64,000 nucleotides of DNA from Solirubrobacterales bacterium (GCA_035940865.1 DASZEL010000002.1:75592-139591); one strand, 5' to 3'. Counted from the stretch's first letter, positions 26,615 through 62,864 are shown. The notes: generated by a model not told the origin, from the sequence alone. Numbers and translations are program-made.

Positions 26615-26698
26615 TGCGGCTGAGAGGAGTCGAACCTCCACGAGCTTTCGCCCACACGGACCTGAACCGTGCGCGTCTACCAGTTCCGCCACAGCCGC
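26615..26698 (-). tRNA. tRNA-Leu (anticodon CAG), class II with a long variable arm; CCA is not encoded
   Basis: Hand-folded. Acceptor GCGGCTG/CAGCCGC, D-arm GCGGAACTGGTAGACGC, anticodon stem CACGG/CCGTG with loop TTCAGGT, a 15-nt variable arm, and T-arm GGAGG-TTCGACT-CCTCT. Confidence 0.9.
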
Positions 26699-26791: not shown

Positions 26792-26864
26792 GCCGCTATC
26801 GTCTAGGGGACTAGGACGCCGGATTCTCAGTCCGGAAACCGGGGTTCGAATCCCCGTAGCGGTA
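26792..26864 (+). tRNA. tRNA-Glu (anticodon CUC); CCA is not encoded
   Basis: Hand-folded. Acceptor GCCGCTA/TAGCGGT, D-arm GTCTAGGGGACTAGGAC, anticodon stem CCGGA/TCCGG with loop TTCTCAG, and T-arm CGGGG-TTCGAAT-CCCCG. Confidence 0.9.
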
Positions 26865-55485: not shown

Positions 55486-55519
55486 AGGACGTCAGCGCCG
55501 CGGCGGGATAGACTCGCCG

Positions 55520-55695
55520 CGTACATATCGGTCGGTGGTCAAGGGAAGTCCGGTGCAAGTCCGGCGTGGTCCCGCCACTGTGACCGGGTGGAGGAGTTCG
55601 CGGGCGCCCTCGGCGCCAGCCACTGGAGGCGACACAGAGCCCCCGGGAAGGCGCGTCCTCCCTGATCCCGGAAGCCAGGAGACCTGTCCCCGGCC
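55520..55695 (+). promoter_or_regulatory. Cobalamin (adenosylcobalamin/B12) riboswitch
   Basis: Conserved core read directly from the sequence: GGTGGTCAAGGGAAGTCCGGTGCAAGTCCGGCGTGGTCCCGCCACTGTGACCGGG ... GCCACTGG ... GGGAAGGCG ... and the B12 box GAAGCCAGGAGACCTGTCC (55671-55689). It lies about 40 nt upstream of the 55730 ATG. The boundaries are approximate. Confidence 0.85.
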
Positions 55696-55729
55696 CAGCC
55701 AATTCAACCCTCGAGGAAAGGGTGGCGTA

Positions 55730-56485
55730 ATGCCAAGAATCACCCCGTTCCGGCTGGCGGCTTTCTGCGCGCTGGCTCTCACTCTGACCCTGGCTCTCGC
55801 CGCAGGCGCTTCGGCCAAGGGCTTCAAGGCCGAGCTGCGCGTGGTCGGCGCCGGCAGCAAGGTCCTGGTCGAAAAGCCGATCGCGACGGCGACCACCACG
55901 GTTAAGACCAGTCCCAAGGCCGAATGCTTCGGCAAGGGTTCCGGCGGCAGTGGCGACCCGGTGACGATCAAGGGCAACACCGCGATGGGCGTGCTCGCCC
56001 GCGCCTCCAAAGCAGTCGCTTCGCTGCGGCCGCTGCTGATCAGCGACAGCTTCGACTTCGGGCTGGCGCTGTGCGGGATCGGGAAGAGCATCGCCAAGGG
56101 CAGCTCGTCCTGGTACCTGAAGGTCAACCATAAGTCGCTGCCGGTCAGCGGCGACGCGGCGGTCATCCACCCGGGCGACGAAGTGCTCTGGACGCTGGCG
56201 AAGACCGAAGCGCCCGCCTACAAGTACCCGACCGAGCTGGTGCTGTCGGCTCCCGCCAACGTCAAGCCCGGGGTGCCGTTCACGGTGCGCGTCTTCTCCT
56301 ACGACGAAAAGGGGAAGGGCACGCCCGCGGCCGACGTCAAGGTGACCGGGGCCACGATCGCCACCGGCCCTGACGGTCGCACCAAGGTGACGCTGAGGAA
56401 GCCGGCGCGGCTGATCGCGCGGGCGGACGCTCAGATCCCCTCGGCCCGCGAGCCGGTCTGCGTGGGGGGCAAGTGCCCGAAGTAA
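55730..56485 (+). CDS. Secreted DUF4430-like protein (putative cobalamin-binding accessory) + Ig-like domain
   Basis: ATG at 55730 follows GAAAGGGTGG. A signal peptide is followed by the DUF4430-like pattern (SSWYLKVNHKSLPVSGDAAVIHPGDEVLW) and then a beta-sandwich region (PFTVRVFSYDEKG). Confidence 0.6.
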   Translation: MPRITPFRLAAFCALALTLTLALAAGASAKGFKAELRVVGAGSKVLVEKPIATATTTVKTSPKAECFGKGSGGSGDPVTIKGNTAMGVLARASKAVASLRPLLISDSFDFGLALCGIGKSIAKGSSSWYLKVNHKSLPVSGDAAVIHPGDEVLWTLAKTEAPAYKYPTELVLSAPANVKPGVPFTVRVFSYDEKGKGTPAADVKVTGATIATGPDGRTKVTLRKPARLIARADAQIPSAREPVCVGGKCPK

Positions 56486-56510
56486 CGGGACGCCGAGCCG
56501 GCTCCGTCAG

Positions 56511-57419
56511 ATGACCGGACGCCGCAGCATGGCGGTCGCGATCGCGCTGCTCCTAGCGGCGCTCGCGGCCGCCGGCTGCGGTCTCGGCCCCGGCGCGGAC
56601 GTCGGCTCGGTGGGGCTGAGGGTGACGCGCGAATTCGGCGCGGTACCGGCGCTGCAGCGCTCGCTCGAGGCGAAGGAATCCGACACCGTGATGCGGGTGC
56701 TGGAAGCGAGCGCCGAGGTCGAGACCCGCTTCGGCGGTGGCTTTGTCCACTCGATCGACGGTGTCGCCGAGGGAGAACGCGGTGGCGACCCCTACGACTG
56801 GTTCTTCTTCGTCGACGGGGTCGAGTCGCCGGTCGGGGCGGCGGAGGTCGATCTGAAAAGTGACGAGCGCATCTGGTGGGACTACCGCGACTGGTCGGCG
56901 GCCAACCACGTCCCCGCGGTCGTCGGTTCGTGGCCGGCGCCTTTCGTGGACGGGGTGGCTGGGAAGCGCTATCCGGTGGTGCTCGAATGCGACGCCGGTG
57001 GCAGCGCCTGCGCGACGGCTCGGCAGGCGTTGGAGAGAGAAGGCGTGAAGCCGTCTTCTGGCTCCCCCAAGGGAGCGATCCGAATGCTCGTCGGTCCCTG
57101 GGATCGTCTGCGGCAGGACCCGACCGCGCAGCTGCTCGAAGCAGGCCCCGGCGAAAGCGGCGTCTATGCGAAGTTCGAAGCCTCCGAGCTTGTGGCCCTC
57201 GACGAGGATGGTGCTCCAGGCAGGCGCTTCGGATCGGACGTGGGCCTGGTTGCGGCCACCAGCCGCTACGGCGGGCCGCCGGTCTGGCTGGTCACCGGCG
57301 AGACGGCTGCGGGGGTGCGCGCCGCCGCCGACGCCCTCGACGAGGAGCACCTGCGCGACCATTACGCGGTGGCGATCGAGAACGGACAGGAGACGGCGCT
57401 GCCGGAACCGGGGCGATGA
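56511..57419 (+). CDS. DUF4430-like lipoprotein (putative cobalamin-binding accessory)
   Basis: Lipobox AAAGC. GGFVHSIDGVAEGERGGDPYDWFFFVDGVESPVGAAEVDLKSDERIWWDY fits the DUF4430 signature. Confidence 0.6.
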   Translation: MTGRRSMAVAIALLLAALAAAGCGLGPGADVGSVGLRVTREFGAVPALQRSLEAKESDTVMRVLEASAEVETRFGGGFVHSIDGVAEGERGGDPYDWFFFVDGVESPVGAAEVDLKSDERIWWDYRDWSAANHVPAVVGSWPAPFVDGVAGKRYPVVLECDAGGSACATARQALEREGVKPSSGSPKGAIRMLVGPWDRLRQDPTAQLLEAGPGESGVYAKFEASELVALDEDGAPGRRFGSDVGLVAATSRYGGPPVWLVTGETAAGVRAAADALDEEHLRDHYAVAIENGQETALPEPGR

Positions 57420-58369
57420 GGTCGCCCTTCGCTTACAAGCCGAGGCGCGGGCCGCTGCAAGACGCTCCGCCCGGGGCCGCGGTCGCCTATCTCGGTGCGA
57501 TCGTCGTCGTCGCCTTCCTCTACTTCAACCCGCTGATCCTGCTGGCCGCCGGCGCGGCAGCGACCCTGGCCGGGATCCTCGCCGGCGCCCGCACCGCCGT
57601 CCGCTCAGCCCTGAAGATGGGGCTCTCGCTGGCGCTGCTGATCGCTGTGGTGAACGCTTTCGTCACCAGCCGCGGCGAGACCGTGGTGGCGCGACTCGGC
57701 CACTGGCCGCTGCTGGGGCGGGTCGACGTCACCCTCGAGGCGATCATCGCCGGCGTCTCCTATGGACTCATCGCCGCCGCAACGATCGTCGCCTTCGCCG
57801 TCTACTCGGCCTGCGTCGACCCCGACCGCGTCCTGCGCGCGCTGCGGCCGATCGCGGGGCGCTCGGCGTTGACGGCGACGCTGGTCTCGCGCCTGGTCCC
57901 GGTCGCCGCCGCCGATGCCGCCCGCCTTCGCGACGCGGCTGCTCTCCGCGGCCCCGGCGCGGCACCTGTCGGCAAGGCTCCTCTGGCCCGCCGCCTGCTC
58001 GCCGGCTCCCTCGACCGCGCCGTCGACGTCGCCGCCACCCTCGAGCTACGCGGCTACAGCCTCGAAGGCCCGCGAGTCCGTACCCGCCGCACCTCGTCCC
58101 GCTACGACCGCCGCTTCTACGCCACCGCCGCCCTCGTCCTCGTCACCGCGATCGCCGGCAAGCTCCTCGGCGCCGATGACTTCCAGGCCTACCCGACCGT
58201 CTCCATCGGCCTCAACTTCGCCACGATCGCCGTGGCCGCGATCGTCACCCTCAGCGGCCTCGTCCCCTTTCGCCGCCCGGTGAGGCGCCGCGCCCCAGAT
58301 GCCGACGGGATGAAAGTACCCCCATATGGAGGGAAATCGTCCCGTCAGCAGGGGGTGGCGGGTGTCTGA
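57416..58369 (+). CDS. ecfT: ECF transporter T component (EcfT/CbiQ family)
   Basis: ATGA-coupled. Five or six TM segments and the paired Arg-Gly coupling helices (AAALRGPG; LELRGY). Confidence 0.75.
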   Translation: MRSPFAYKPRRGPLQDAPPGAAVAYLGAIVVVAFLYFNPLILLAAGAAATLAGILAGARTAVRSALKMGLSLALLIAVVNAFVTSRGETVVARLGHWPLLGRVDVTLEAIIAGVSYGLIAAATIVAFAVYSACVDPDRVLRALRPIAGRSALTATLVSRLVPVAAADAARLRDAAALRGPGAAPVGKAPLARRLLAGSLDRAVDVAATLELRGYSLEGPRVRTRRTSSRYDRRFYATAALVLVTAIAGKLLGADDFQAYPTVSIGLNFATIAVAAIVTLSGLVPFRRPVRRRAPDADGMKVPPYGGKSSRQQGVAGV

Positions 58370-60029
58370 GCTGGCGATCAGGCGGGGGGTGGCGCCGGCG
58401 CTTGCGGTCGAGAGTCTCAGCTACTCCTATCCGCAAGCCGCGGAGCGGGCGCTCGTGGACGTGTCGCTCAAGGTCGCCCCTGGGGAGTTCGTGCTCCTCG
58501 CCGGACGTTCTGCCTCGGGCAAGTCGACCCTGCTCAAAGCCGCCTGCGGGCTGGTGCCGCATTTCCATGGCGGGGAGATCGAGGGGGAGGTCCGCGTTGC
58601 CGAGCTCGACGCGGTTGAGGCAGGGCCAGGCGAGCTCGCCGCTGCTGTCGGCTATCTCGCCCAGGACCCGGAGACGCAGGTCGTCTCGACCACCGTCGCC
58701 GCCGAGATCGAGCTGCCGCTGGAGATGCGCGGCGACCAACCGAGCGACCGCGCCCGCGCGGTCGAGGAGGTGGCGCTGGCGCTGGCGATCCCGCACCTGC
58801 TCGATCGCGCCGTCGACACCCTCTCCGGCGGCGAGCTGCAGCGCGTGGCCCTCGCTGCCGCCCTCGTCACCCGCCCGCGCCTGATCCTCCTTGACGAGCC
58901 GACCTCACAGCTCGACCCGGTTGCCGGCGACGAGCTGATCTGGCTGCTGCGGCGCCTGAACGAGGAGTGGGGAGTGGCGGTGCTGCTGGCCGAACATCGG
59001 CTGGAGCGGTGCCTCGCTGCGGCGGACCGGGTTGTGGCGATGGAGGCGGCGACGGTCGCTTTCGACGGCGCGCCGGCCGATTTCTTGTTGTGGTCCAGTG
59101 AGAGCGACGCCGCGCTCTCGACTCCCGCGGCCAAGCTCTTCTCCCTCGCCGGGTTGACGCCCCTGCCTGTGGGTGTCCGCGACGCGAAACAGATGCTTCG
59201 CGGGATGGGGGTCGCGCACCCTCCTGCTTGCAATGTGGGGAGGGTGCGCGACCTCCATTCCGGCGAGCCTGTGCTGGAGGCGAAGAACCTCTGGGTCGAG
59301 CTGGATCGGGGCGAGGAGCTGCGGGACGTGTTGCGCGGGATCGACCTCGAGGTGCGCCCCGGCGAACGGATCGCGCTGATGGGCCGCAACGGTGCCGGCA
59401 AGTCGACGCTGCTGCGCACGGCTGCGGGATTGCACGAGCCCGTCGCCGGCAAGCTCGAAGTCGGCTCGATCGCGCTCCTCACCCAGAACCCGAGCGACTA
59501 CCTGGTCCGCGAGCGCGTCGGCGACGAGCTGCCGGGCGCCGAGGGCATGGCAGCACTGCGGGTGGTCGGTCTAGAGCACGCTGTCGAGGCCGACCCGCGC
59601 GACCTCTCGGGCGGTGAGCGGCAGCGCCTGGCGCTGGCGATCGCGCTGGCGGGGCGGATGGAGGGCGAGCAGCTCCCAGCGGTCGTTGCCCTCGACGAGC
59701 CGACCCGCGGCATGGACCGTGCTCGCAAGGACGAGTTGGTCGCGTTGATCCGGAGCCTGGCCGGTGATGTCGACTTTGTTACCGATGAGGTAACTAAGTC
59801 GACACGTAGGGCCGCGGTCGTCGTCGCCACTCATGACGTCGAGTTCGCCTCCGCGTTCGCCGAGCGGGTGGTGCTGCTCGGCGAAGGGGTGGTGATCGCC
59901 GACGGGCCGATGGAGGAGATCCTCTCCGGCGGCTGGTACTTCGCTACCGAGGTCGCGCGGGTGCTCGACTTGCCGGGAGTGGTGACGCCGGAGCAGGGGG
60001 CGGCGGTGCTGGAGGACGGGCTCGGATGA
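58362..60029 (+). CDS. ecfA: Fused ECF transporter ATPase (EcfA-EcfA' tandem ABC domains)
   Basis: Two complete ABC cassettes: GRSASGKST/LSGGELQR/ILLDEP and GRNGAGKST/LSGGERQR/VALDEP. I prefer the GTG at 58362 (an 8-nt overlap with ecfT). The track ATG at 58326 is an alternative. Confidence 0.85.
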   Translation: MSELAIRRGVAPALAVESLSYSYPQAAERALVDVSLKVAPGEFVLLAGRSASGKSTLLKAACGLVPHFHGGEIEGEVRVAELDAVEAGPGELAAAVGYLAQDPETQVVSTTVAAEIELPLEMRGDQPSDRARAVEEVALALAIPHLLDRAVDTLSGGELQRVALAAALVTRPRLILLDEPTSQLDPVAGDELIWLLRRLNEEWGVAVLLAEHRLERCLAAADRVVAMEAATVAFDGAPADFLLWSSESDAALSTPAAKLFSLAGLTPLPVGVRDAKQMLRGMGVAHPPACNVGRVRDLHSGEPVLEAKNLWVELDRGEELRDVLRGIDLEVRPGERIALMGRNGAGKSTLLRTAAGLHEPVAGKLEVGSIALLTQNPSDYLVRERVGDELPGAEGMAALRVVGLEHAVEADPRDLSGGERQRLALAIALAGRMEGEQLPAVVALDEPTRGMDRARKDELVALIRSLAGDVDFVTDEVTKSTRRAAVVVATHDVEFASAFAERVVLLGEGVVIADGPMEEILSGGWYFATEVARVLDLPGVVTPEQGAAVLEDGLG

Positions 60030-62011
60030 GCTGGCAGCTGACGAGCTTCGTCATCCTCGGCCTCGTCCTTCTCGGCGGCTTCGTCTGGTATGAGCGTTCG
60101 CGGCCGCCTTCGCAGGTCGTCGCCCTGGTGGCTGCGCTGGCCGCGCTGGCAATCGTCGGCCGGATCGCCTTCGCCGCTTTCCCCAACGTCAAGCCGACCA
60201 CCGACATCGTCATCTTCGCCGGCTACGCCCTCGGCGGCGCCCCTGGATTCGCCGTCGGCGCCCTCGCCGGCCTCGTCTCCAACTTCTGGTTCGGCCAAGG
60301 TCCGTGGACGCCGTGGCAAATGGCGGCCTGGGGTCTCTGCGGGGTGCTCGGAGCGCTCCTCGCGCTCGGCGCGCGTAACGCCAGCCGCTTCGTCCTCGCC
60401 GGCGTTTGCGGCATTGCAGGCATTTTGTACGGAGCTCTGATGAACTTCTCCTTGATGGCGACCTATGGGGGAGACCTATCGTGGAAGCACTTCTGGGTGC
60501 TTGAGGGGCGCGCGGTCCCGTTTGAAATCGCCCACGTCCTCGGCAACGTCGTGCTTGCGCTGGTGGCGGGCCCGGCGATGGTGCGGATGCTCGTCCGCTT
60601 TCGCCAACGCTTCGAATGGCAGCGACGGGGGACGAAAGAGAGCTTCGGGGGGTCAGGCGGGAAGTGGGGCGGCGCCCTCCGCGGCGGTATTGCGCTCCTG
60701 CTCGTGGCGATGGCGGCGGCCCTCGCGGCACCCGCCGCCCAAGCCTCCGACGTCAGCCGTGCCGCCGATTGGCTCGCATCCCAGCAGCGCCCCAGCGGCG
60801 GCTTTGCCGCCGACTCCGGTCGCGAGGCCGGTGCGGAAATGACCTCCTGGGCGATGCTCGCCCTCGCTGCCGCCGGGCGCAATCCGCTCGACGTAACCGC
60901 CGCCGGCAAATCTCCCGTCGATTTCCTTCGCTCGCACGCCGCCGAGATCAAGGACGCCGGCGACGTCGCCCGGACGATCCTCGCGCTGGAGGCGGCTGGG
61001 GTCGATTCGCGCGAATTCGCCGGCGAAAACTTCGTCGACCGGCTGCTCGCGCAGCGGCGCCAGAGCGGCTCCTACCAGGGCTGGCCCGCCACCAGCGCCT
61101 ACGCGGTGCTGGCGTTGCGGGCGGCCGGAGCCAACGACGCGACCGCGAAGACGGTCGAGTGGCTGCGCAAGGTGCAGGGCAAGGACGGCGGCTGGGGGAA
61201 CCTGCCTGGCGACGCGAGCACCCCTGAGATCACCGGCGCCGTCTTGCAGGTGCTCTCGCCTGGATCCGAGGCCAGCGATCGCGCGCTCGCCTACCTGCGC
61301 AAGGCGAAGCGCCCCAACGGCGGCTTCGCTCCCGCCAACAACCTTGCCGCCAACGCCCAGGCGACTGCTTGGGCCTCAGAGGGCCTGCTTGCAGCGGACA
61401 AAGACCCGGCCGGGTTCGGCACCGGCAAGAGCTCACTCGCCTACCTGCGCGATCTGCAGGCAGACGATGGCCACTTCCTCCAGGCGCCGGGGCAAGAGTC
61501 CTCGCCCGTCTGGGTAACCGCCGACGCGATCGTCCCCCTCTCCAGCCACTTCCTCCCGATCTCCGCTCCGCCACGCGAGCCCAAGCCGAAGCCGGCCTCG
61601 CCGCCCAACAGCAGCTCTCCGGACTACAGCGGCGGCCTTCCGTCCTCGAGCGTTCCGCCGCCGGACCCGGGCGAATCGCCCCTCGAAACCCTGGAACGGT
61701 TCGAAGACAGCCCGACGGGCGAATCTCCTGCCGGACAGCCGGCTTCACCGGGGGGACGGGGCAAAGGGGTGAAGCCCTCGGGCGGCTCGATCGGGAGCCC
61801 GCTGCCGCAGGGCTCGCCTGTCTCTCCAGCGCCCGCCCCGGAAACGCCGTTGTTGCCCAGCGACGCCGCCGGAGAACCAGCCTCCGAATCGACGGACGAT
61901 TCCAGCAGCACCGCCGGCGCGATCCTCCTCGGCCTGCTCAGCGGCTGCATCCTCTTCGGTCTCGGACTCGCCGGCCGCCGCGGCTGGATGCGCTGGCGCT
62001 ACGGCCTCTAG
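60026..62011 (+). CDS. Fusion protein: ECF S-component-like membrane domain + extracytoplasmic prenyltransferase/terpene-cyclase-like alpha/alpha-toroid repeats + Pro-rich linker + C-terminal TM anchor
   Basis: ATGA-coupled. The N-terminal ~200 aa have 5-6 TM segments with FPNVKPTTDIVIFAG. Then come five QW-like repeats (LASQQRPSGGF, LLAQRRQSGSYQGW, LRKVQGKDGGWGN, LRKAKRPNGGF, LRDLQADDGHF), a Pro/Ser-rich segment and a final TM segment. Confidence 0.65.
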   Translation: MSWQLTSFVILGLVLLGGFVWYERSRPPSQVVALVAALAALAIVGRIAFAAFPNVKPTTDIVIFAGYALGGAPGFAVGALAGLVSNFWFGQGPWTPWQMAAWGLCGVLGALLALGARNASRFVLAGVCGIAGILYGALMNFSLMATYGGDLSWKHFWVLEGRAVPFEIAHVLGNVVLALVAGPAMVRMLVRFRQRFEWQRRGTKESFGGSGGKWGGALRGGIALLLVAMAAALAAPAAQASDVSRAADWLASQQRPSGGFAADSGREAGAEMTSWAMLALAAAGRNPLDVTAAGKSPVDFLRSHAAEIKDAGDVARTILALEAAGVDSREFAGENFVDRLLAQRRQSGSYQGWPATSAYAVLALRAAGANDATAKTVEWLRKVQGKDGGWGNLPGDASTPEITGAVLQVLSPGSEASDRALAYLRKAKRPNGGFAPANNLAANAQATAWASEGLLAADKDPAGFGTGKSSLAYLRDLQADDGHFLQAPGQESSPVWVTADAIVPLSSHFLPISAPPREPKPKPASPPNSSSPDYSGGLPSSSVPPPDPGESPLETLERFEDSPTGESPAGQPASPGGRGKGVKPSGGSIGSPLPQGSPVSPAPAPETPLLPSDAAGEPASESTDDSSSTAGAILLGLLSGCILFGLGLAGRRGWMRWRYGL

Positions 62012-62354: not shown

Positions 62355-62864
62355 ATGGACGTCGAGACCGCGATCCGCACCCGGCGCACGCACAAGGCGT
62401 TCGCGGCGGAGCCGCTGCCGCGGGAGCAGATCGACGAGCTACTCGAGCTGGCAAGCTGGGCGCCGAACCACAACCTCACCGTTCCCTGGCGCTTCCGGGT
62501 GATCGGGCCGGAGACGCTGCGGCGGCTGAAGGAGGTGGCGGGGCCGGAGGGCGCCGCAAAGCTCGACCGGGCGCCGACGCTGATCGTTGTCTCCTGCGTC
62601 CTCAGCGGCGACCCAGTGGAAGAGGAAGAGGACCTGCACGCAACCGCCGCCGCCTCCTACATCGTCCTGCTAGCCGCTCATGACCGCGGCTTCGCCGGCT
62701 ACTGGCGCACGCCCGGCATCCTCCGCAGCGCCAACGGCCGCGCCGCCGTCGGCCTGCCCGAGGAGGAGCGCTTCGTCGGCCTCCTCCACCTTGGCTACCC
62801 GCGCCAGGAGAAGCCGGCGCCGGAGCGCCCTGGCGCCGACCGCACGACGACCTACCTCGACTGA
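62355..62864 (+). CDS. Nitroreductase-family protein
   Basis: AIRTRRTHKAF...EQIDELLELASWAPNHNLTVPWRF is the canonical nitroreductase N-terminal FMN-binding pattern. Confidence 0.8.
   Translation: MDVETAIRTRRTHKAFAAEPLPREQIDELLELASWAPNHNLTVPWRFRVIGPETLRRLKEVAGPEGAAKLDRAPTLIVVSCVLSGDPVEEEEDLHATAAASYIVLLAAHDRGFAGYWRTPGILRSANGRAAVGLPEEERFVGLLHLGYPRQEKPAPERPGADRTTTYLD

Follow-up and report, generated by a model that had tools for sequence, protein, structure and literature searches.

Background

The transport of cobalamin and cobinamide by an ECF importer has been described for ECF-CbrT of Lactobacillus delbrueckii (Santos et al. 2018, PMC5997447; PDB 6FNP), in which CbrT is a free subunit of 182 aa that relies on a general ECF module which also serves seven further S-components (group II). 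Burroughs, Balaji, Iyer and Aravind predicted in 2007 that operons with a transcobalamin-like SLBB clade serve B12 scavenging in Gram-positive bacteria (PMC1796856). These operons combine SLBB/DUF4430 surface proteins, a second SLBB paralogue and an alpha/alpha toroid with CbiO-like and CbiQ-like genes, in hosts without B12 synthesis, and the role proposed for them was the scavenging of B12 or its precursors. The only experimentally studied operon of such a layout, lsa1836-1840 of Lactobacillus sakei, has been linked to heme and not to B12, in a 2019 preprint that modelled a split transcobalamin alpha/beta heterodimer for heme (bioRxiv 10.1101/864751); it encodes ECF S, A-A' and T subunits together with two separate exported proteins that were modelled as the beta half and the alpha half of transcobalamin. 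In the animal carriers transcobalamin, intrinsic factor and haptocorrin (2bb6, 2pmv, 4kkj), an (alpha/alpha)6 toroid and a DUF4430 beta-grasp domain are joined in one soluble chain. The DUF4430 domain is found at the C-terminus of transcobalamins (PMC4350170), and it is the family of the domain that contacts B12 in transcobalamin (PMC1796856).

The operon described here lies in a 64,000-nucleotide stretch of DNA (the window, from whose first letter all positions are counted) of a soil, Thermoleophilia-type actinobacterium. Like ECF-CbrT, it encodes a homologous S-component, EcfT and two ATPase domains, and is tied to B12-dependent metabolism in a host that appears not to make B12. It differs in that a dedicated ECF module is present in the same operon (group I layout) with fused ATPases, that the S-component is followed in its chain by one more helix, a toroid ectodomain of 285 aa, a Pro-rich stalk and another anchor, and that the unit also includes two DUF4430 proteins (one of them by distant resemblance) and a riboswitch. 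In the operons predicted in 2007 the toroid is fused to an SLBB domain, on either side, whereas here its fusion partner is the S-component and each SLBB protein is a separate chain; the clade was reported from low-GC Gram-positives, planctomycetes and some euryarchaea, and that description includes neither a riboswitch nor the identification of the membrane subunit as CbrT. The alpha-like protein of L. sakei is free and not fused to the S-component. The idea of a modular, transcobalamin-like capture is not new, having been predicted in 2007 (PMC1796856) and modelled as a split heterodimer in 2019 (bioRxiv 10.1101/864751). A preliminary description of this DNA had presented that idea as its central point; its B12-riboswitch-controlled ECF importer and its toroid fold stand, but the modular capture had already been published as a prediction (PMC1796856), and the element that looks new is the fusion of S-component and toroid. 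The features of the locus are as follows.

55519..55705 (+): cobalamin riboswitch aptamer RF00174, 69.8 bits, full model
55706..55729 (+): expression platform, with a short hairpin at about 55707-55723 that contains the Shine-Dalgarno sequence (MFE and centroid folds)
55730..56485 (+): gene 1, 251 aa, secreted protein with distant DUF4430-like and Ig-like (MG4-like) domains and a Cys-rich tail (sub-threshold Pfam matches, Atlas neighbours)
56511..57419 (+): gene 2, 302 aa, lipoprotein with a DUF4430 (transcobalamin beta-type) domain at residues 58-125 and an alpha/beta C-terminal domain at residues 134-295 (PF14478)
57416..58369 (+): gene 3, 317 aa, EcfT (CbiQ family) transmembrane coupling subunit (PF02361)
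58326..60029 (+): gene 4, 567 aa, fused EcfA-EcfA' double ABC ATPase (two ABC_tran domains)
60026..60625 (+): gene 5, residues 1-200, CbrT-like ECF S-component of six helices (phmmer to 6FNP chain A)
60665..60748 (+): gene 5, residues 214-241, seventh membrane helix, a probable former signal peptide that keeps an Ala-x-Ala motif (hydropathy, alignment)
60731..61585 (+): gene 5, residues 236-520, extracytoplasmic (alpha/alpha)6 toroid with five QW-like repeats (PF13243, PF00432, AF2)
61586..61900 (+): gene 5, residues 521-625, Pro/Ser/Gly-rich stalk (composition)
61901..61978 (+): gene 5, residues 626-651, C-terminal membrane anchor (hydropathy)

Operon organization and regulatory leader

The five genes follow each other on one strand in the order DUF4430-like secreted protein, DUF4430 lipoprotein, EcfT, fused EcfA-A' and S-component-toroid fusion, with a gap of 25 nt between genes 1 and 2, ATGA overlaps at the 2/3 and 4/5 junctions, and an overlap of 8 or 44 nt between genes 3 and 4, where a GTG at 58362 is a possible alternative start of gene 4. 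The coupling noted in the preliminary description is borne out by the junctions, and also by synteny of all five genes in each related locus that has enough flanking sequence. Operon and riboswitch are conserved within Solirubrobacterales and likewise in other actinobacterial families, there with split genes. Gene 3 matches PF02361 (CbiQ/EcfT) with 41.2 bits and E 2e-10 (Pfam cut-off 25), and gene 4 contains two ABC_tran domains in a single chain (E 1.1e-45, Pfam), in agreement with the EcfT and fused EcfA-EcfA' first assigned to them; the best NCBIfam models for gene 4 are ECF_ATPase_1 (E 1e-71) and ECF_ATPase_2 (E 8e-67), both below their equivalog cut-offs.

The cobalamin riboswitch, which had been recognized from the sequence, was recovered in a covariance search with RF00174 at 69.8 bits (E 3.7e-15; positions 1-189 of the 189 in the model), against a gathering threshold of 31.5 bits. 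It lies 25 nt upstream of gene 1, and no second RF00174 match occurs in the genome of 2.58 Mb. The same upstream place is occupied by RF00174 in all nine orthologous loci tested, and in other actinobacterial families a match is present upstream in 10 of the 14 loci fetched. The Shine-Dalgarno sequence of gene 1 is located 7-14 nt upstream of the ATG and falls within the short hairpin, which is contained in both the MFE and the centroid fold of the leader. The SD-containing hairpin is invariant, and a 20-nt block of this platform does not vary in nine loci, even though the proteins encoded there share only 52-76% identity. No terminator-like site was found downstream of the aptamer, and we infer that the riboswitch acts on translation by hiding the ribosome-binding site.

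The fusion of S-component and toroid

Gene 5 (661 aa, 60026-62011, + strand) unites two proteins in one chain, as the preliminary description had claimed. Residues 28-200 align with residues 8-180 of 6FNP chain A over about 173 residues (phmmer E 7.6e-14); this chain is deposited as 'Membrane protein', and we read it as CbrT from its length of 182 aa. The Pfam ECF S-component profile PF12822 scores 26.4 bits, under its cut-off of 30.7, and the AF2 model of this part is a helical bundle with pLDDT of about 90. The assignment of the second part as a QW-repeat alpha/alpha toroid was confirmed by PF13243 (SQHop_cyclase_C) and PF00432 (Prenyltrans), both above their Pfam cut-offs, and its AF2 model has pLDDT 92-98. 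The region that follows is of low complexity, with 27 Pro, 23 Ser and 14 Gly among the 115 residues 516-630.

In several actinobacterial families the S-component and toroid genes lie side by side or form one gene. Where the toroid is its own gene, in other families, it has its own signal peptide; the separate toroid protein of L096 has an anchor equivalent to the C-terminal one of gene 5, and in one relative an in-frame stop codon occupies the position that corresponds to residue 214. These arrangements suggest that neighbouring cbrT-like and toroid genes became one when the stop codon that separated them was lost, through which the signal peptide of the toroid would have become helix 7. Helix 7 may still be cut by signal peptidase, in which case the toroid would be held by the C-terminal anchor.

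When the toroid is compared with known structures, it superposes on the alpha domains of all three B12 carriers with an rmsd of 2.8 to 3.6 A over 232 to 245 residues: intrinsic factor (2pmv_A; Z 21.7, rmsd 2.8 A, 232 residues), haptocorrin (4kkj_A; Z 18.6) and transcobalamin (2bb6_A; Z 18.2). The structural check against the transcobalamin alpha domain that had been suggested is thus positive, but squalene cyclase scores above every carrier (Z 26.1, 22% identity) and many unrelated glycosidase toroids reach Z of about 20, so that the likeness to carriers is not specific. The resemblance to transcobalamin is at the level of the fold and is common to many glycosidase toroids. By sequence, the toroid is assigned to the prenyltransferase/squalene-cyclase repeat family and not to Cobalamin_bind, which sets it apart from the animal carriers; PF01122 (Pfam) gave no match to gene 5 at E up to 1. 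Class II terpene cyclases have a catalytic DxDD motif and prenyltransferases a Zn-binding Cys. Residues 236-522 contain no D-x-D-D, no D-x-D-E and no Cys, with only the QW-like repeats retained, and because DxDD and Cys are absent the toroid is probably neither a cyclase nor a prenyltransferase.

The DUF4430 proteins

Of the two secreted DUF4430-like proteins first proposed, gene 2 is a member of the family and gene 1 is not by its family score. Gene 2 matches PF14478 with 51 bits (E 2e-13; Pfam cut-off 23.8), begins with a hydrophobic stretch and a lipobox-like motif with its Cys, and has more than 5,300 relatives. Its AF2 model is confident in the C-terminal domain, which finds weak structural matches only (Z about 9, to BcsB and GH84 accessory domains), and has pLDDT below 50 in the DUF4430 part (residues 54-137). 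As the DUF4430 domain has no confident model, the likeness of gene 2 to the transcobalamin beta domain is one of family membership. Gene 1 encodes a signal peptide and scores 16.4 bits (E 0.013) against DUF4430, below the cut-off of 23.8, and E 0.0056 against MG4, also below cut-off (both Pfam). In an hhalign comparison of genes 1 and 2, the DUF4430 C-terminal motif lines up weakly (E 0.01, probability 4%), and the nearest structural neighbours of the ESM Atlas model of gene 1 are DUF4430 clusters (TM 0.85 and 0.82), in which 27% of the members carry DUF4430. The DUF4430 label of gene 1 hence denotes a distant resemblance without a family hit, and is the one weak element in the description of the operon. 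The claim that both transcobalamin folds occur here as separate proteins holds in part: the toroid superposes (Z 18.2-21.7) and gene 2 belongs to DUF4430, but Cobalamin_bind is not matched.

Proposed function

We consider that the operon is most probably a system for the scavenging and import of vitamin B12 (cobamides) that is switched off by B12, and the ECF importer under B12 control proposed earlier is upheld by the riboswitch score and by the homology of the S-component to CbrT. At high cellular adenosylcobalamin, the aptamer would fold and the invariant hairpin would hide the ribosome-binding site; under B12 shortage, translation of the operon would proceed. The DUF4430 proteins and the toroid would bind cobamides outside the membrane, within the wall of the single-membrane cell, with the ligand perhaps held between the beta-grasp domain and the toroid face as in transcobalamin. 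The covalent tether would keep the caught ligand beside the CbrT-like subunit for uptake, ATP hydrolysis by EcfA-A' would then make the S-component topple in the membrane and free B12 on the inner side, and the imported vitamin would be adenosylated by PduO.

The proposed sandwich of toroid and DUF4430 around B12 is drawn by analogy with the animal carriers. That the toroid and its DUF4430 partner form a split transcobalamin, which closes on a cobamide and hands it directly to the tethered CbrT subunit, is a tentative proposal to which we give clearly less than even chances, and in such an arrangement the CbrT subunit must still topple despite its extra helix and second anchor. ECF transporters are usually described as working without soluble binding proteins. 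If the proposal is true, the fusion is a natural ECF transporter with a covalently attached extracytoplasmic capture domain. It would then reveal the route by which a large vitamin passes a thick wall to reach an ECF importer, and would make the bacterial origin of the animal B12 carriers accessible to experiment.

Host requirement and alternative explanations

The genome of the host (2.58 Mb, 94.7% complete) encodes MetH, methylmalonyl-CoA mutase and further B12-binding proteins as users of B12, together with a PduO adenosyltransferase. Neither CbiB nor CobS was matched in it, and it contains just two TP_methylase (tetrapyrrole-methylase) genes; given its completeness of 94.7%, absent biosynthesis genes are to be read as not found and not as proven missing. 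The data support a host that uses B12 with no sign of making or remodelling it, and which, for want of a CbiB or CobS match, must import complete cobamides.

An unlikely alternative, though one that deserves some weight, is that B12 is imported by the transporter but is not bound by the toroid or the DUF4430 proteins, which would serve the cell envelope, with no transcobalamin-like sandwich; they might fasten the importer to the wall, have a glycan or lipid as ligand or substrate, or be chaperones. Such roles would fit the terpene cyclases and glycoside hydrolases that the toroid matches best in structure, and also the weak likeness of the gene 2 C-terminal domain to BcsB and glycosidase accessory domains, and CbrT by itself binds B12 with high affinity (PMC5997447). 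However, the toroid has neither DxDD nor Cys, and DUF4430 is the family that contacts B12 in transcobalamin (PMC1796856). Several actinobacterial families also keep the toroid and DUF4430 genes beside the S-component under a B12 riboswitch, and there are prokaryotic clusters in which DUF4430 is combined with squalene-cyclase-type or Cobalamin_bind domains.

Two further readings concern the substrate. The similar layout of the L. sakei operon, which contributes to heme uptake (preprint, bioRxiv 10.1101/864751), would suggest heme or another tetrapyrrole in place of B12, but we regard this as highly improbable: a high-scoring cobalamin riboswitch is present here and in relatives from other families, while the word riboswitch does not appear in the main text of the preprint (bioRxiv 10.1101/864751), the S-component matches CbrT, hemin did not inhibit ECF-CbrT (PMC5997447), and the host needs imported B12. 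The least probable reading of all is the import of cobalt or of incomplete corrinoids (cobinamide, cobyric acid) for salvage, in place of complete cobamides. In its favour, cobalt transport is where components of the CbiQ and CbiO type were originally described. In addition, cobinamide is also carried by ECF-CbrT (PMC5997447), and the wording 'B12 or its precursors' of Burroughs et al. (PMC1796856) leaves room for it. Nevertheless, with no CbiB or CobS match and two TP_methylase genes only, cobalt or precursors could not become B12 in this host, and profile searches found no CbiM- or CbiN-type component in the operon.

Elsewhere in the genome there is one Peripla_BP_2 protein, which could serve another B12 route.

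Organization and control of the operon

The operon consists of a cobalamin riboswitch followed by five genes on the forward strand, the last of which joins a CbrT-like S-component to an extracytoplasmic toroid.

Features of the operon (window coordinates)
55519-55705, +, cobalamin riboswitch (RF00174)
55730-56485, +, gene 1: 251 aa, signal peptide
56511-57419, +, gene 2: 302 aa, lipoprotein-type N-terminus; Pfam DUF4430, 51 bits
57416-58369, +, gene 3: Pfam CbiQ/EcfT, 41 bits
58326-60029, +, gene 4: two Pfam ABC_tran domains
60026-62011, +, gene 5: 661 aa; Pfam ECF S-component slightly below cut-off, SQHop_cyclase_C and Prenyltrans above cut-off

From gene 1 to gene 5 the junctions are, in order, a 25-nt gap, an ATGA overlap, an overlap of 8 or 44 nt depending on the start, and a further ATGA overlap. 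The preliminary description had named two DUF4430-like proteins, EcfT, a fused EcfA-EcfA' and an S-component fused to a toroid, and the Pfam calls, taken with the structural neighbours of gene 1, indicate that it was correct, with gene 1 as its weakest element. Gene 1 scores 16.4 bits against DUF4430, below the cut-off, and the closest structural neighbours of its ESM Atlas model are DUF4430-bearing clusters (TM 0.85 and 0.82); an hhalign comparison of genes 1 and 2 aligned the correct motif, yet too weakly to be counted (probability 4%, E 0.01).

The riboswitch, also part of that description, was recovered in the Rfam model search at 69.8 bits, against a gathering threshold of 31.5 bits (E 3.7e-15, 189/189 model positions), and the genome search returned no other RF00174 match in 2.58 Mb. 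It is present in all nine related loci tested, and RF00174 matches 10 of the 14 fetched loci of other families, a contig end cutting three of the four negative ones. The 20 nt between aptamer and start codon hold a small 5-bp hairpin with the Shine-Dalgarno sequence (window 55706-55729), and in alignment A4 this block is invariant across nine loci whose proteins are just 52-76% identical. Because the Shine-Dalgarno hairpin is invariant and no terminator-like site was found 3' of the aptamer, we infer that control is translational, through B12-dependent hiding of the ribosome-binding site. The invariant block may be the kissing-loop partner of the riboswitch. Folding the leader as a single sequence gave a z-score of +0.82, with shuffles equally good, and thus does not settle the expression platform.

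The CbrT-like membrane part and its fusion to the toroid

Residues 28-200 of gene 5 match PDB 6FNP chain A with E 7.6e-14. This chain, 182 aa long and deposited as 'Membrane protein', we read from its length as CbrT; the entry is a crystal structure of the Lactobacillus delbrueckii ECF-CbrT complex, for which ATP-dependent uptake of cobalamin and cobinamide was shown, with hemin not competing (PMC5997447). Since gene 5 matches this chain, the importer is, as far as homology can tell, a CbrT-type B12 ECF transporter of the dedicated kind, encoded within its own operon and with the A and A' ATPases fused. CbrT-like matches also lie inside open frames of 770-1151 aa in some other genomes of the phylum (G131:C1:134802-135359, G155:C2:82685-83239 and G100:C23:97024-97581), which hints at other S-component fusions, with subunits of the ECF module as possible partners.

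Both halves of gene 5 were matched in 11/11 sampled genomes of the window's order (families f1-f3). On re-alignment, ten of ten gave a single unbroken alignment; in the eleventh (G045) the match breaks near residue 290 into two neighbouring pieces that lie in different frames. Among 1.84 billion cluster representatives, 418 proteins are related to gene 5 at E <1e-30, many of them full-length fusions with 37-50% identity, which shows that the fusion is genuine and occurs commonly within its clade. One distant fusion, P0197, is encoded on a contig of 2.8 kb. Outside the order, S-component and toroid are adjacent separate genes, translationally coupled in one such locus (L096), and the toroid proteins encoded separately have a signal peptide of their own, together with a C-terminal anchor and a stalk of low complexity. 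In a genome of another family (G224, L106:6983-8578), an in-frame stop falls exactly at the equivalent of residue 214, the S-component/toroid junction, and is one mutation from fusion. Because separate toroids carry a signal peptide and one relative has this stop, helix 7 of gene 5 (residues 214-241) is best read as a former signal peptide. An Ala-x-Ala-type motif stands at its end in most fused homologues, and the linker preceding it, rich in Gly, is modelled as disordered (pLDDT <50 for 200-217). In two genomes of one genus (L088 and L090), the fused genes end directly after the toroid, without the Pro-rich stalk and second anchor.

Folds of the extracytoplasmic domains

The AF2 model of gene 5 (residues 1-530) has a mean pLDDT of 89, and 92-98 in the toroid blocks. 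An exhaustive VIA-align search with this model covered 48,161 PDB chains.

Structural matches of the gene 5 ectodomain (residues 236-519)
Squalene cyclase 1gsz: Z 26.1
Human intrinsic factor 2pmv, alpha domain: Z 21.7, rmsd 2.8 A over 232 residues
Many glycosidase toroids: about Z 20
Haptocorrin 4kkj: Z 18.6
Bovine transcobalamin 2bb6: Z 18.2

On the strength of the Z-scores against carriers and cyclases, the ectodomain is predicted to be an (alpha/alpha)6 toroid, a fold shared with the carrier alpha domains, the likeness being at fold level. The proposed resemblance to B12 carriers holds to that extent, but squalene cyclase scores higher than any carrier and Pfam gives no PF01122 match in the toroid. 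The top 50 Foldseek hits of the model in the PDB are terpene cyclases and prenyltransferases only, and the B12 carriers surfaced solely in VIA-align. By its sequence the toroid, with five QW-like repeats, is assigned to the prenyltransferase/squalene-cyclase repeat family; it contains neither a DxDD motif nor any cysteine, which favours a role as a putative binding module over one as an enzyme.

DUF4430, the Pfam family that covers the C-terminal domain of transcobalamins (PMC4350170), is the counterpart of the transcobalamin-like SLBB clade of beta-grasp domains described by Burroughs et al. (PMC1796856). PDB sequence searches with gene 1, gene 2 and the gene 2 profile retrieved no transcobalamin, intrinsic factor or haptocorrin chain. 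The AF2 model of gene 2, built from 24 close orthologues, has pLDDT <50 in the DUF4430 half and is confident for the C-terminal alpha/beta domain alone (residues 134-295, window 56910-57395, pLDDT 77-97). PDB matches of this domain are weak (Z ~9), to the C-terminal region of BcsB and the N-terminal accessory domains of GH84, GH67 and GH115. It also holds the most conserved stretch of the protein, directly after the DUF4430 domain. BtuH of Bacteroides was considered as a DUF4430 protein and dropped, having been published as DUF4465.

Conservation across relatives

Relatives of gene 5 were found in 334 stretches of species-representative genomes, the best 80 of which all come from Solirubrobacterales or unclassified Actinomycetota MAGs. 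Wherever a locus extends far enough upstream, genes 1-5 are all there and their order is unchanged. Across the phylum sample of 301 genomes, the window's own (G000) among them, 64 have a match, a tally that includes two unpublished genomes (G048 and G120) to which no particular statement here is tied. The 14 loci fetched from other families share the order P0002-like gene, EcfT, EcfA-A', S-component and toroid. The first gene was scanned in one other-family locus, from another actinobacterial family (L096:759-3362), and there the first gene after the riboswitch encodes an 867-aa protein with a PQQ_2 beta-propeller and DUF5719 in place of the small DUF4430-like gene 1, which suggests that the first capture modules of the operon are interchangeable.

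B12 requirement of the host

Many microbes depend on B12 although few produce it, which is why the communities of soil and gut are shaped by uptake systems. To our knowledge, the only routes studied at the bench in single-membrane bacteria are ECF-CbrT and the BtuFCD and BacA types. The assembly (2.58 Mb, 94.7% complete), whose nearest relatives are soil Solirubrobacterales MAGs, encodes a cobalamin-dependent methionine synthase (1194 aa), a methylmalonyl-CoA mutase (664 aa), three more proteins with a B12-binding domain and a PduO-type adenosyltransferase. It has two TP_methylase genes only. These B12 enzymes, together with the failure to find CbiB and CobS at this level of completeness, suggest that the organism depends on importing complete cobamides. 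DUF4430 scores above threshold in the operon alone. A Peripla_BP_2 (BtuF/siderophore-type) binding protein encoded elsewhere (G000:C14:248434-249105) could belong to an iron-siderophore system or to a second B12 route.

Proposed mechanism and relation to earlier work

These data establish which parts the operon has, the families to which they belong, how they are linked, the presence of the riboswitch and the dependence of the host on B12, and a working sequence can be proposed from them. The ribosome-binding site, hidden when B12 is plentiful, would be exposed under cobamide scarcity. Cobamide would then be captured by the DUF4430 proteins and the toroid and handed over to the tethered CbrT-like subunit, which, like those of other ECF transporters, would topple and release it in a step driven by ATP. 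The analogy with transcobalamin makes it plausible that B12 would be clamped between the toroid and a DUF4430 domain (PMC1796856). A complex prediction for gene 1 (28-251), the gene 2 DUF4430 region (27-150) and the toroid (236-522) gave 0.00 against a mark of 0.32, which speaks neither for nor against binding.

Burroughs, Balaji, Iyer and Aravind described in 2007 transcobalamin-like SLBB surface proteins in Gram-positive bacteria, often fused to an alpha/alpha toroid and often with a second paralogue, in operons with CbiO and CbiQ genes and in hosts without B12 synthesis; they proposed B12 scavenging and the acquisition of animal transcobalamin from such bacteria (PMC1796856). For L. sakei, a preprint of 2019 presented a model in which two separate proteins, one beta-like and one alpha-like, form a heterodimer that supplies an ECF transporter; the substrate assigned there, however, is heme (bioRxiv 10.1101/864751). 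The modular transcobalamin-like capture put forward in the preliminary description is therefore a rediscovery, since both the prediction and the heterodimer model came first. What looks new, within a kind of system predicted before, is the CbrT-toroid fusion, its signal-peptide origin and, for operons of this actinobacterial type, the direct homology between membrane subunit and CbrT; we found no published description of any of the three.

The B12 role of the 2007 surface proteins is still at the level of prediction, and this locus offers a clear example: the genome is small, depends on B12 and shows no sign of making it, and the one B12 riboswitch found there governs a system of this kind. 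It gives a direct sequence link between SLBB-type operons and the proven B12 subunit CbrT, and the fusion, by tying the toroid physically to the importer, provides 'Rosetta-stone' evidence that toroid and transporter cooperate. By itself the locus leaves current understanding unchanged, and it is a reasonable choice for a first biochemical test.

Neighbouring genes

Downstream of the operon, beyond an AT-richer gap, lies a nitroreductase-family gene of 169 aa with a weakly BluB-like N-terminus (window 62355-62864), which is probably outside the operon; nitroreductase as BluB was rejected (37 bits against a cut-off of 150). Elsewhere in the window, two divergent tRNA genes stand 93 nt apart, at 26615-26698 (-) and 26792-26864 (+).
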